NCBI GenBank assembly: GCA_963840645.1 | Contig: CAWIZL010000004.1 | Coordinates: forward strand, 153,121-201,469 | Direction of reading: 5' to 3' | Origin: Candidatus Doudnabacteria bacterium | GTDB lineage: Bacteria; Patescibacteriota; Doudnabacteria; UBA920; VMFF01 | Length of the DNA stretch: 48,349 nucleotides | In this document: positions 17,164 to 45,179 of the stretch, piece by piece | Numbering within the stretch: the stretch's first letter is position 1 | How the letters are laid out: the number at the start of each line of letters is the position of its first letter | The notes under the pieces: generated by a model | Told to the model about the DNA's origin: nothing | Databases searched by the model: none | What the model saw: the letters and a program-made list of their open reading frames with translations, nothing else | Position numbers and translations under genes: made by a program

Positions 17164-17168
17164 AAGTT

Positions 17169-17553
17169 TCCTGAGCTACCCGGTAAGCCGAATTCTGTTC
17201 CCAGCTACTGCTAGCCAGGAGATAGCCATCTATCTAAGCAGCCAACCCGCTCTTTCGAGCCTATTTGGCCTTGCACCGAGTTGGGTTTTCACCGCAGCAC
17301 GTTGCCGTGCCCACGCGTGGCTCTTACCCCACGATTTCAATCTTACCTGATCCGCATTGCTGCGGCCATCGGCGACATGTTTCTGTTGCACTGTCCCTGG
17401 GCTTGGGTGGCTTGAAAATTCACGTGAATTTTTCAAAACACTTGCTCCCGGCTGGATTTCCCAGTAACTCGCTTCCTGCACTCGCGCGCAGGGGTGTCCG
17501 GACTTTCCTCTGGGTACTTCGATTTCGCCAGTGGCTATCTGGATTGCTCAGGA
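17169..17553 (-). ncRNA. rnpB: RNase P RNA (bacterial)
   Basis: Minus strand has GAGGAAAGTCCGG near the 5' end and ACAGAATTCGGCTTA near the 3' end. The termini pair as P1 (TCCTGAGC...GCTCAGGA), with a promoter upstream and a terminator downstream. Confidence 0.96.
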
Positions 17554-41191: not shown

Positions 41192-41252
41192 GGAGCTATT
41201 TTACCAAGTTAAGCTCTAAGTAGCAAAAAAATTAAGATTTTAAAAATTGCAC

Positions 41253-41285
41253 AAAAAAGAGGAGGACACGTGGTGTCTCTCCTCT
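41253..41285 (-). terminator. Intrinsic terminator of the orphan operon
   Basis: AGAGGAGAGACAC-CAC-GTGTCCTCCTCT-TTTTT. Confidence 0.75.
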
Positions 41286-41343: not shown

Positions 41344-41733
41344 TTAGCTGGTCAGGCTGGCCGCTGGTCGGCTGCGCGCCTTGGCGAGCAGCTTTTCGAA
41401 CTTCTCGGGAAAACTCTGCATGGTCTCAGGGTCGTAGAACCTGATTCCATCGGAGTACCCCGCGAGGTTGTAGGCTTTGCTGCTGGCGATTATCGTGCCG
41501 CCGAGAATCTGGATCTGTCGGAGCATCCTCTCTGAACAACACTCGCCCTCGATGAGTATAACGACGTTGACGTTGTCCCCCAGAGTTCGGAGGACTGCCT
41601 CGTACGCTATATCGCCGCTATTACACTTCACGCACGTATCCTCTCCGAACTTTAGCATGACGTAGTCATACCCGAACCGCAGAGATGTTTGGCCGAGATT
41701 CGGTGCCGTAAAGTGCATGTCGTTTATACCCAT
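41344..41733 (-). CDS. Orphan hypothetical protein (alpha/beta pattern)
   Basis: ATG at 41733 preceded by GAGGG (alternative GTG at 41754); third gene of the orphan operon. Confidence 0.55.
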   Translation of the reverse strand: MGINDMHFTAPNLGQTSLRFGYDYVMLKFGEDTCVKCNSGDIAYEAVLRTLGDNVNVVILIEGECCSERMLRQIQILGGTIIASSKAYNLAGYSDGIRFYDPETMQSFPEKFEKLLAKARSRPAASLTS

Positions 41734-41807: not shown

Positions 41808-41878
41808 GATTGCTCCCACCTCAATAAACCATCGGGTGATTTTCTGAGGTGAGCGGGCGTTCTATGAGAGAACACCCG
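41808..41878 (-). ncRNA. Putative structured RNA motif, copy B (two abutting hairpins plus CAATC)
   Basis: Homologous to 42600-42670; stems are maintained with G-U pairs on the minus strand. Confidence 0.6.
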
Positions 41879-41959
41879 AGTTTGCCGCTTACTACTCCGG
41901 CTGCTGTGAAGGCTTATGAACTTCTTGCGCTGGCAAGATGGTAGCACTGAGATAGTGCG

Positions 41960-42538
41960 CTATCGATCTCCGCTGCGCGCGAAACAATCATTGAGCGGAC
42001 AACCCAGGGGCTTATACCCCTTCTCGTATGGGTGGTAGCTCGTTGTATTGATCAGGTGAGCCTTGTCCATGAGCTTTGGGAATACCCCGCTCAATGTCTT
42101 CTTGGTGAGGTTCACTTTCTGTTCGCTGGGCGGTTGTATGCTGACCCCGTACTCGTCTCGATAATTGGCTTTCCATTTTGCCGCGTCCCGATCTTTGAAC
42201 GTGATAACGTTGCAACCGCTGCTGCGCTTTGGATCGTCGCCGCACAGAACCACCTGGCGGAGGTACATGCTGTTAGGCTCGCCGCTGTAGATTCCCGTGA
42301 TGGAAGTTCGGCCTGCAATTTGGTGGAGCGACACCTCGTAGTCGTGGTGCTCCTTACCCAGTATCTCCTCAATGTCTACGTCGTACTCCGTAGTCGCACC
42401 CCTATACAGATTTCGGGTTGCAACCTCTTGCGCACGCTTCTGCGCGAGTTGGCTGTAATAGTGGTCGATAAAAAGCTTCGATCCTACCAAGCCACCTAAG
42501 ATCAAAAGAGCTACTACAACTATCGTAGAATTCTTCAC
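41960..42538 (-). CDS. Orphan membrane-anchored/secreted protein
   Basis: AAGGAGGG before GTG, an N-terminal TM helix, and four Cys. Confidence 0.7.
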   Translation of the reverse strand: MKNSTIVVVALLILGGLVGSKLFIDHYYSQLAQKRAQEVATRNLYRGATTEYDVDIEEILGKEHHDYEVSLHQIAGRTSITGIYSGEPNSMYLRQVVLCGDDPKRSSGCNVITFKDRDAAKWKANYRDEYGVSIQPPSEQKVNLTKKTLSGVFPKLMDKAHLINTTSYHPYEKGYKPLGCPLNDCFARSGDR

Positions 42539-42599
42539 AGTAAACCCTCCTTAAGGGCGAAAACTTCCAGTACTTTTAGGTCTCTGGATCCAGACCTGA

Positions 42600-42670
42600 G
42601 ATTGACCCACCTCAATAAACCAGAGACTGATTTCCTGAGGTGGGGCTCGCAGAAATAAATCTCTGCGAGC
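42600..42670 (-). ncRNA. Putative structured RNA motif, copy A
   Basis: Homologous to 41808-41878, with the same length and architecture. Confidence 0.6.
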
Positions 42671-42689: not shown

Positions 42690-43106
42690 TTACGAATCGT
42701 ACTCAGTCGGCATCGCCATGCCGCGGATGAAGAACGCGACTGGAACGGAGAGCACGAGTGCAGCAGTGCCTCCGCAGAGGAGCCACACAGCCCACCTGTG
42801 TTCGATGCCGAACACCATGGCGGTTCCCAGAATCACGAATGCGATCAGGGCATCGAACAGTACGATGCGCGACGGCAGCCAGTTCGGGAAGTTCCTCTCG
42901 ACGCAGAAGTGGCTGCCGATGTAGTTGGCGAGCGCACAGGCCGAGAACAGCGCGGCGATGAACAGGCCGCCTGGCACGAAGTTGTAGAACAGGAGCGCCC
43001 AATCGGATGCGTGGAGCATCATCGTGATACCCTGCCCGAGAGCGGCCACCAGCAAGCCCGCAACGACCGCCGACCAAACCAACGGATTCTTGTAAGACTT
43101 TCTCAT
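42690..43106 (-). CDS. Orphan membrane protein (about 4 TM helices)
   Basis: TAAGGAGG before the ATG at 43106 (MRKSYKNP); four hydrophobic segments; GC-rich codons. Confidence 0.7.
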   Translation of the reverse strand: MRKSYKNPLVWSAVVAGLLVAALGQGITMMLHASDWALLFYNFVPGGLFIAALFSACALANYIGSHFCVERNFPNWLPSRIVLFDALIAFVILGTAMVFGIEHRWAVWLLCGGTAALVLSVPVAFFIRGMAMPTEYDS

Positions 43107-43152: not shown

Positions 43153-43182
43153 AGTATAACATGGATACTTGCTTTTTGTCAA
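43153..43182 (-). promoter_or_regulatory. Sigma70 promoter of the orphan operon
   Basis: TTGACA-18 nt-TATACT with an extended TG. Confidence 0.7.
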
Positions 43183-43197
43183 TAGCTATGGCTTAAT

Positions 43198-43225
43198 AAA
43201 AAAGCACCTTTTACAGTGCTTTTTT
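43198..43225 (-). terminator. Intrinsic terminator after the surface protein gene
   Basis: AAAAAAGCAC/GTGCTTTTTT inverted repeat. Confidence 0.65.
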
Positions 43226-43268
43226 GCTCGAAGCTTCTATTTAATACTTCTACTAACTACCGGCGCTC

Positions 43269-45179
43269 CTAGCTCCCCGCTTGATCCGCGCTCTGCGCTG
43301 ATGGCAGCAGGTAGCTGTCCACCTCAGCCTGCGGCAAAACAGTAGGCGCCTTCAACTTGTACGTTGTTTTCCACTGCGCGTACGTGAGCGGAGTTTTCTG
43401 ACCTTTCACAATTGCGTAGATTGCAGTAGATGCATCGCCCTTAATTAAAGTCCCGTCAACTGGCGGCAGCGGGCTGCCAGCAGTCAAATCCAATTCTTCT
43501 TCGAGCGACAGTGTCACAGCTTTCTTGGCCACACCGCGCTGCTGTGCAACGAACTTTGATATAGAGTGGCTTGTGCCGTTTGAGTACAGGAAGTACGTGC
43601 CGAGCTCTGTTGTGGTGAAGTACGTGCCATCTGGCGGCGCAACGAATGGTCCGAGCGCAGCAGATGAAACCTCAGTGGGCTTCACTGTCACAACGTTCGC
43701 AAAGCTGAACCCATCGAGCCAAACACTGTGCCTGAAATTGGGTGCAAGAAGCCTTCCTGAATTTCGTACACCTCTGGGCTCGTGGCGTACTTGATGAGCG
43801 TTCCATCTTTTGGCAGCAAGAACCCACCCTGCGTGTACGAGTTCACCTCTGCCTGTGGCAGCACGAACGGCGGAGCACTGTTGTAGCCGTACTGCTGGTA
43901 CGTGAACGGCGTGAGCAGCATGAGCTGGCCGCCCTGCACAACGTAAATGTTTGGAGACCCATCGCCTTTCACCACAGTGCCGTCAGATGGTGTGAGCTGG
44001 TTGCCAAGTGGGAATAGGTTTGCATCAGCAGTCGTCACGCTGAGAGCGTTCACCACGTTCAGCCCGCGCTGCTTGAGCACAAAAGTAGAAGCTGTGTGGC
44101 GCACGCCACTCTCGAACACGTACGTCTCGTGGGCAGCGTCATCGCTGATGCTGACCATCGTGTTGTCAGGCGGCGCGAGCGTTGGCCCTTTATCTAAACT
44201 TGCAAACTCTGTTGGCGAAATTTGCGTGATGCTGACTGTGGCAGGGTTAATCCCCTTTGCCTCGAGCACGAACGTTGGCGCAAACGACAGCTCGCCGTTC
44301 TGCACTATGTAAATGAGCGTGCCGTTCTGGAGCAGCGTGCCATTCGGGTACTGGAACCACTCTGTGAAAAATTTCCAAAAATTGTAGTTGCCGTTGTACA
44401 CGTGCGGCGTGTAGCGGTACAGCGCAGCTGTTGCCAAATCGCCAAGCGTCACAGCCTGAACTGGGGCTGCGTTGTTCGGCGGTCCCTGCGTGTTCTGCAC
44501 GTTGATCGTGTCTCCAACGCCAGACACTGTGATGAGCGGCGAGCCGAACGCGTTGTTGTTTACATCCACCATTGGGCCACGGCCACCTGGCGTGTTGAAG
44601 CTCCTCATGAGCGACTCAGGCGCTCCAAGGTAGCGGTTGCCCTGTGCATCTAAGTTCCCGAACAGCTGGAAGTAGAAGCCCTGGTACAGTGAGCCACAGC
44701 CACCAGAATCTGGACACCCAAAGCCCATGGCAAAATCGAGCGCGCCCTGTAAGTCAGTGTTATTGTCAAACGTTCCATCAATGAGGCTCTGCTCTTTTTC
44801 CATGGTCACCACAATCACCTGCGGGTTCAATCCACTCTCCTGTGATGCGTCCCAAATTAACTGCGCTGCCGTGCGCAGCTGCGGCAGGCTTGGCTCTGGG
44901 TCATTCAGCGCGCTCTTTATTAAATCTTCCTGTGGCTCTTTCAGCATGAGCAGGAACGATGGGCTCGTGTTTGCGAGCACGCTCCCCTTTGCGGCCAAGA
45001 ACTGCTGGATGCCAGCTGCGCCGCCAAACGTTTGCGTGTCTGAAAAAGCGCTGTCTGAAATGAGGTTGCCTGGGTCAAAGTCAGCCAGCGCCTGTAGCGC
45101 GTAGCCGCCAAACGTTAGCGACCACCAAGAGCACAGCAATTGTTGAACGTAGCTTACCCATGTTTGTTTTGCCTTTCAT
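43269..45179 (-). CDS. Secreted surface protein: 'hemagglutinin-related' putative lysozyme-like N-terminal domain plus multiple CPR P-x-DGTLIK repeats; frameshifts near 45110 and 43710
   Basis: FDPGNLISD, AAQLIWDASQESGLNPQVIVVTMEKEQSLI, AMGFGCPDSGGC and ALYRYTPH. Repeats (PSDGTVVKG, PKDGTLIK, PVDGTLIKG) continue into ORF 43269-43691. Confidence 0.75.

Follow-up and report, generated by a model that had tools for sequence, protein, structure and literature searches.

The window, that is, the whole stretch of DNA analyzed here (48,349 nucleotides), spans positions 153121-201469 of contig C4 in a four-contig, 985 kb assembly from a Candidatus Doudnabacteria bacterium (the source genome, G000). 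Its minus strand carries an operon of three orphan genes, W1 to W3, and each of the two spacers between them holds a pair of hairpins, H1 and H2, referred to below as module A and module B. The elements of the operon, in window coordinates and in the order of transcription, are:

43194-43226, minus strand: hairpin followed by a T run that ends the preceding gene, just 5′ of the promoter (read by eye; absent from the list of the terminator and promoter scan)
43153-43182, minus strand: strong operon promoter, TTGACA-18-TATACT with a TG extension, member of a six-copy family
42690-43106, minus strand: W1, orphan of 138 amino acids, membrane-protein-like by eye
42645-42670, minus strand: H1 of module A, variable GC hairpin of 11 pairs, starting 19 nt past the W1 stop codon
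42606-42644, minus strand: H2 of module A, conserved 39-nt hairpin of 16-17 pairs, 64 bits with model R1
42578-42597, minus strand: additional hairpin (AGGTCTGGATCCAGAGACCT) 3′ of module A; C4:436578 is the only other copy that shares it along with H2
41960-42538, minus strand: W2, orphan of 192 amino acids with a hydrophobic N-terminus
41854-41878, minus strand: H1 of module B, variable GC hairpin of 10 pairs
41815-41853, minus strand: H2 of module B, 59.1 bits with model R1
41344-41733, minus strand: W3, orphan of 129 amino acids, last gene of the operon
41252-41285, minus strand: canonical intrinsic terminator at the operon end, GC hairpin and T6

The scan found no promoter-like site between the genes of this operon. 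Searches of Pfam, PHROGs and NCBIfam with ten flanking proteins, W1 to W3 included, returned nothing above threshold, and a protein atlas search with W2 and A5 gave nothing usable; a search through the order (146 genomes) gave a single weak relative of W2 among the other 145. By blastp the three ORFs are mutually unrelated, as the preliminary description of the locus had held. The operon is not unique, being one of six ORFan units that share a type of promoter. Upstream of the operon, at 43269-45139 (minus strand), ORFs of 483 and 140 amino acids overlap by 4 nt and have repeat features in common (LPQAEV.SY..); they may represent one gene or a duplicated C-terminal domain.

Module A (42670-42606) and module B (41878-41815) are each composed of the variable GC hairpin H1 abutting the conserved 39-nt hairpin H2. 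The H1 arms of module A are GCTCGCAGAG/loop/TTCTGCGAGC, and its H2 contains a 1x1 mismatch and a U-G as third pair from the loop. On the 3′ side, H2 is followed in module A by a T and then by CAATC at 42604-42600, and in module B by AG and then by CAATC at 41812-41808. The two H2 sequences are identical at 33 of 39 positions, with four of the six differences in the loop, and the window contains two exact occurrences of the 17-mer from the 3′ arm of H2, against an expected 0.09. Folding of an 81-nt stretch around each copy with RNAfold gave exactly two abutting hairpins, the sense strands of A and B reaching -41.8 and -34.3 kcal/mol (z of -7.8 and -5.1, with none of 200 shuffles as good) and the antisense strands -36.4 and -27.2 kcal/mol (z of -5.4 and -2.1). 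Sequence and folding thus bear out the 71-nt two-hairpin architecture first noticed in both spacers, the extent and distribution of the H2 changes, and the maintenance of H1 pairing (hairpins of 11 and 10 pairs) under a changing sequence. Two details had to be revised: the CAATC tail, present in both window copies, is absent from the other nine copies of the genome, and the non-Watson-Crick stem pairs, described as all G-U, do include G-U pairs but also one purine-purine 1x1 mismatch in H2 (alignment column 13/31). At the gathering thresholds of Rfam 15 the sole match in the whole window was RNase P at 17168-17550, and at E ≤ 10 the segment 41200-43300 yielded only a chance match to STnc320 (E 6.9) placed off the modules, in agreement with the view that the motif lies outside known families.

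The source genome (0.99 Mb) contains 11 copies on the sense strand, all in polycistronic units. Nine were found by pattern search and regular expressions over the genome, and a covariance model built on the H2 of these nine (R1), which scores its founding copies at 55-66 bits, added C4:436578 (35.8 bits) and a weak match at C4:438257. A second model, R2, built from 18 copies, raised these two to 46.9 and 41.4 bits; the remaining matches in the genome tables of both models are these places read antisense. A census by structure only, in which CA-loop-TG had to close a stem with 14 or more of 17 positions paired, produced 57 raw matches compared with 14-22 in five shuffles, and returned the same 11 places with no new member. 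The layout of all 11 is a stop codon, 5-70 nt, H1, 0-2 nt, H2, 10-120 nt, and then the Shine-Dalgarno sequence (SD) and start codon of the next, co-oriented ORF, the distance of SD and start codon also being given as 0-60 nt for all 11. Every copy is single and co-oriented with its flanking genes. Since neither H1 nor H2 leads into a T run, the sequence on the 3′ side is rich in A, and a co-oriented ORF with SD stands behind all 11, an intrinsic terminator was rejected as the identity of the module.

Ten of the 11 copies lie inside ORFan operons with one shared type of promoter. This promoter family has six members, at window 43153-43182 (minus strand), C4:226549, C4:437100, C4:441346, C2:381801 and C2:228245, which conform to TTGACAAAWAGCAAG...TGcTAYNCT and have a conserved AT-rich upstream box; a small GCTA-loop-TAGC hairpin is seen at the predicted 5′ end of the transcript. 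Five members head the polycistronic ORFan units that hold the ten modules, and the sixth (C2:228245) precedes a single gene with no module. That all six head ORFan units suggests a common regulator. No module stands ahead of the first gene in any of the operons, the tight junctions A5|A6 and B5|B6 within the same operons have none, and the operon ends at W3, E2 and C2 have separate canonical U-tract terminators. Among the flanking proteins, blastp detected as paralogs only A1/B1 (40% identity) and A5/B5 (74%). A second array of six modules, at C4:436578-440828, is part of an island next to tRNA-Gly/Pro. Immediately 3′ of module C4:438252, at L008:3553-4110 (minus strand), adjacent ORFs of 84 and 96 amino acids were read by eye as the halves of an RdgB/Ham1-type NTP pyrophosphatase, and this pair may be a split or frameshifted gene. 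The tRNA-Glu island of the source genome contains a second, unrelated 39-nt palindrome (CAGGCAGGTG..CAGCTGCCTG) at C4:226673-226711 and C4:227329-227367, the two copies being 656 nt apart with similar upstream flanks.

Covariance-model searches, which the preliminary description had recommended, disclosed further copies not only in the source genome but in other Patescibacteria. R1 matched 6 of 61 relatives, G000 included. R2 matched 7 of 10 genomes of the family at E ≤ 0.01, the match in G004 being a 28-nt partial one and three matches falling inside ribosomal-protein coding sequence as read by eye. Over 146 genomes of the order, which are also the class-level set, it matched 19 (E ≤ 0.001 and stricter filters); 17 order-level matches were read at their loci, and four further listed matches are outside that reading. 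In a sample of 151 genomes of the phylum five had a match, G159, G233 and G249 being new. Convincing matches come from Patescibacteria only, on contigs labelled Candidatus Saccharibacteria, Doudnabacteria, Magasanikiibacteriota or 'Patescibacteria group', and outside G000 there are one to five per genome among the matches listed.

Patterns were also run over wider collections. A loose pattern found at least 119 stretches in genome contigs, and the 80 listed loci that were screened held chance matches only: against the model two matched partially (9-35 of 45), and eight CPR-labelled ones, inspected by eye, lacked the 5′ arm. A stricter pattern retrieved genomes of genus g2 only, already known. 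Core-only patterns gave 14 stretches, of which five were convincing full-length matches to the model, all labelled Patescibacteria, and eight were chance matches to the core only; matches of the latter kind in other phyla were counted as chance because they have no outer stem. The remaining stretch, from Oligoflexales at 22.6 bits, is probably a chance match. One metagenome scan returned four stretches, one on the same contig as L148 and the rest at 15 bits or less or unmatched by the model, and three patterns run over viral contigs gave 0 matches each. No published description of the module was found in the literature on Patescibacteria intergenic RNA motifs or Saccharibacteria intergenic hairpin repeats.

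The H2 hairpins of 42 copies were aligned with MAFFT. Standard pairs occupy 94.5% of the cells, and double-sided changes occur at 13 of the 16 pairs, in 106 cells. The covariation score, computed over copies that are phylogenetically non-independent, was 0.544, compared with 0.234 ± 0.015 for shuffled alignments (0 of 500 reached it) and 0.10-0.16 for slid partners; the 18-copy set gave the same picture. The outer stem covaries even between copies of one genome (G119a/b, G018a/b and G071a/b). Towards the apex the sequence is conserved, UAG-N-AAAUCA ... UGGUUU-N-YUG, and three positions carry habitual wobbles, U-G in 36 of 42, U-G in 25 of 42 and G-U in 21 of 42. The loop is free to vary, since that of G013b (L189) accommodates a structured insertion of about 40 nt. 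In 36 of 42 copies the sense strand folds more stably than the antisense (means of -34.7 and -28.5 kcal/mol, a difference of -6.2), statistics inflated by the relatedness of the copies and by their having been found with a sense-strand model.

H1, defined by a gap of 3 nt or less and a dG of -7 or lower, abuts H2 in 35 of 43 copies under this automatic rule. Three of the eight failures (G001a, G001b and G018b) are parse artefacts whose folds display the hairpin, three are marginal (G003a with a gap of 4, G233 with a gap of 6 and G005b with a weak hairpin), and a convincing H1 is absent in G066 and G097b. Across the family H1 has 7-15 pairs and no conserved sequence, as the comparison of the window copies had indicated. 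G056 and G071a, which belong to different genera, have an orthologous locus where H1 is 95% and H2 84% identical, and the upstream gene is 71-79% identical and 56% at third codon positions. The paralogs A1 (L008:6865-7281) and B1 (L009:5144-5485), small proteins with a C-terminal Cys cluster, are 40% identical in amino acids with modules 82% identical and promoters and modules together at about 77-82%, so that the non-coding scaffold changes more slowly than the coding sequence. Both comparisons, the orthologous locus of G056/G071a and the paralogs A1/B1, point to purifying selection on the module. Taken together, the data show that H1 and H2 form a conserved two-hairpin RNA module of the transcribed strand, sparsely distributed across Patescibacteria. 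The initial view of a cis element acting on that strand is sustained by covariation and strand bias, and the element, present in further copies, corresponds to neither an Rfam family nor an ordinary terminator.

The module is located 30-110 nt past the stop codon of a co-oriented gene. A crude stop-to-stop call placed the end of a co-oriented ORF upstream of 29 of 39 copies; among the ten others, three local ones reflect spurious antisense frames in GC-rich DNA, and when eight doubtful loci were looked at directly, G005a alone still lacked a co-oriented upstream ORF. The 3′ side is more diverse. In G056, G081, G071a, G071b, G119a and G109 only a few bases separate the module from an SD and start codon; in G003a, G087, G088 and G044 a canonical terminator stands directly behind the module; in G003b and G106 there is a hairpin without a clean U tract, and in G001b/G007 and G087 a convergent gene. 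The proposal that the element punctuates an array of orphan genes was correct in that array-like operons have the element between mutually unrelated orphan genes, but in other genomes single copies trail housekeeping genes, among them chorismate mutase, sigma-factor-like and MOSC-like genes; these neighbour names, like RidA, S12, EF-Tu and pcm, come from reading translations by eye.

Several comparisons place the limits of homology at the module itself. The G056/G071a alignment ends at the last base of H2, with a different gene beyond, and in G005b/G001c and G009a/G001c, where the module is 86-88% and the neighbouring genes 73% identical, homology likewise ends at the 3′ end of H2. Within the source genome the paralogy of the 226005 and 439180 units begins at the first bases of H2, and 226005 and 440785 have the upstream gene and H1 in common, their paralogy ending in H2; from these two paralogies the 226005 operon can be read as array 2 minus three internal genes, joined at H1|H2. 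Module A and the copy at 439708 share H1 and H2 (83% over 70 nt) and not their upstream genes, and the region of module A is 77% identical over 84 nt to C4:436578, covering H2 and the extra third hairpin, so that module A combines the H1 type of one with the downstream hairpin of the other. This mosaic sharing and the conservation of the modules imply that modules and promoters are a conserved scaffold around rapidly changing or exchanged genes. In G001 a segment of about 100 nt just downstream of a module (L020:1622-1721) recurs in G001, G005 and G009 at 72-77% identity, and is possibly another small repeat family of the g2 genomes.

We propose, as a reading that is quite possible though short of probable, that the module is a cis-acting mRNA punctuation mark, recognized by a trans factor as a site for processing or stability. 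In the model, a protein acting in trans, either a double-strand- or hairpin-specific RNase or an RNA-binding protein, would read the conserved apical stem of H2, recognizing the core UAG-N-AAAUCA / UGGUUU-N-YUG, in which one U-G wobble is fixed. H1, abutting H2, would stack on it and remain as a hairpin protecting the 3′ end of the upstream cistron, and H2 would then head the downstream cistron. Cistrons of long ORFan transcripts would in this way be processed in segments or differ in stability, with no termination of transcription. The geometry of H2 (16-17 pairs) stacked on H1 (7-15 pairs) is compatible with an RNase III site, which spans about two turns of dsRNA. Generic stabilizer hairpins and RNase III sites need no conserved sequence, so that the trans factor is a hypothetical one, and a protective H1 would be redundant at several loci, as a canonical terminator or hairpin stands directly behind the module in at least five genomes other than G000. 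It also counts against punctuation that the junctions A5|A6 and B5|B6 manage without a module.

Two other explanations consider the module as a DNA element. H2 or H1+H2 could be a selfish, REP- or MITE-like palindrome that spreads to tolerated sites behind genes, its RNA structure being a by-product. Its multiple copies in the source genome, the module-only homology of module A and 439708 in unrelated contexts, their mosaic sharing with 436578 and the repeat of about 100 nt adjoining a module in g2 genomes are what such an element would leave. However, no transposase is linked to it, the matches listed for genomes other than G000 are few, the cases examined are co-oriented with the gene ending upstream and form no inverted doublets, the conserved core is common to families of the phylum, and single-copy orthologous modules are far better kept than synonymous sites; we regard this explanation as unlikely. 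No empty site was found in the synteny of genus g2, where the loci compared were rearranged. The module could also be a joint at which folded single-strand DNA is recombined by a hypothetical recombinase, swapping ORFan cassettes in integron-like fashion. The unrelated small ORFs of the arrays, each divided by the same imperfect palindrome, the join at H1|H2 in the C4:226005 operon, the arrest of homology at the H2 3′ end with a new gene or rearranged segment beyond, and the presence of three of five loci in tRNA-adjacent islands with tRNA genes and integrases all point in that direction. Nevertheless, no integrase is next to any array: the tyrosine recombinase (PF00589) genes are only at C4:361290 and C2:159124, neither near C4:194931-195766 or C4:436578-440828, and the serine integrases target tRNA 3′ ends and end in tRNA-derived sequence unrelated to the module and to the promoter family; the idea that this family is identical with the serine-integrase tails was dropped, as their sequences are different. 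By eye no core of R′ (GTTRRRY) and R′′ (RYYYAAC) was seen, the only GTT, in TGGTTTATT, being at odds with GTTRRRY. Two side-by-side hairpins contrast with the one nested fold of attC, the frequent G-U wobbles favour RNA, single copies trail housekeeping genes in other genomes, and the stop of homology at H2 would be equally expected if an unconstrained spacer beyond it had diverged; recombination at the module is accordingly held to be very unlikely. A related version, in which Patescibacteria maintain promoter and H1-H2 as a fixed scaffold where ORFan genes are swapped, inserted or deleted at the edge or loop of H2, much as in an integron but with no known integrase, and the RNA fold might double as a processing signal for the gene that arrives there, is decidedly improbable too.

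The remaining explanations assign the module, as an RNA, to control of the distal gene. A tandem-hairpin terminator or attenuator devoid of a U tract, lowering distal expression, would suit GC-rich hairpins right behind stop codons and the modules placed at the end of a transcription unit in several genomes, such as that of G001b/G007 between convergent genes. It is highly improbable in view of the A-rich sequence, in place of a U tract, 3′ of H2, of the next SD at 0-15 nt in several copies with no promoter found, and of the canonical terminators used at operon ends and, in other genomes, directly behind the module; moreover, it leaves the sequence conservation of H2 unexplained. H2 might instead serve as a translational operator or enhancer of the downstream gene, a site for a protein or a stand-by site for the ribosome by the RBS. 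In 398923, 439180, 226005, G056, G081, G071a, G071b and G119a it ends 0-15 nt before the SD, in G249 the SD is inside its 3′ arm with the AUG 5 nt behind, and this arm is rich in purines and often resembles an SD. The start codon, however, lies anywhere from 11 to about 120 nt away, and at least seven copies have a terminator or convergent gene instead of a co-oriented downstream gene, which makes a translational role doubtful at best. Sequestration of SD/anti-SD by H2 was dropped, as many genomes have an outer stem that does not resemble an SD, and so was an internal promoter in or after H2, for which no match was found.

Patescibacteria account for a large share of bacterial diversity, and RNA-level gene control in them is almost uncharted. 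The module is an RNA motif supported by covariation, with a core common to families of the phylum, and it marks the borders of fast-evolving genes suspected to matter for the episymbiotic lifestyle. It offers a handle for locating ORFan operons, for fishing the factor that would read H2 and for testing gene turnover at the joints.

The module is an uncatalogued element, absent from Rfam 15, and its features recall in part those of several known systems. In integrons, attC sites are imperfect palindromes between mostly promoterless small ORFs served by one promoter; they function in the form of a folded single strand and have conserved outer boxes around a variable centre. The module likewise separates unrelated small ORFs behind one promoter by imperfect palindromes, but it has neither intI nor an R′/R′′ core and keeps one whole hairpin with a variable neighbour, and an attC identity was rejected. 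The put antiterminator RNA of HK022 consists of two stem-loops one base apart and is promoter-proximal, upstream of the terminators it overrides. Compared by layout alone, the module shares the two-hairpin geometry (gap 0-2 nt) but is not promoter-proximal, the first genes of the operons having no module before them.

The Correia elements (CREE) of Neisseria are mobile MITEs of 100-150 nt with terminal inverted repeats, inserted in either orientation; they fold when part of an mRNA, where RNase III can bind or cut them, altering the expression of neighbouring genes (PMC2649163). They resemble the module as repeats foldable in mRNA and differ from it in that the module is 65-75 nt long, comprises two separate hairpins and gives no sign of transposition. 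For REP-type palindromes of enterobacterial operons, organized as REP/BIME or REPIN-RAYT, a role in mRNA turnover has been proposed (PMC3116915, PMC3479197). The module is similar in being a conserved imperfect palindrome of about 35-40 nt that is transcribed, multicopy and placed after stop codons between co-transcribed genes. In malE-malF a REP serves as a stabilizer. The module differs from REP in having 11 copies instead of hundreds, no RAYT, inverted doublets or GTAG head, a strictly sense orientation, an obligatory abutting second hairpin and a core kept across families of the phylum at one to five matches per genome. A REPIN-RAYT system was rejected: the single PF01797 Y1 gene is flanked by CCGACCAGC..GCTGGTCGG hairpins unrelated to H2 and present in two copies only. 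This IS200-like transposase gene (148 amino acids), at C4:143725-144242 of the source genome, is located between two identical 20-nt hairpins with no further copies in the genome. The RNase III sites of the T7 early genes are single irregular intercistronic hairpins with an internal mismatch and are not known to have a conserved sequence common to a phylum. The module differs from them in its two hairpins and conserved sequence; like them, it places mismatch-bearing stem-loops between the cistrons of a long transcript, and its cleavage, if it occurs, would leave hairpin-ended monocistronic mRNAs.
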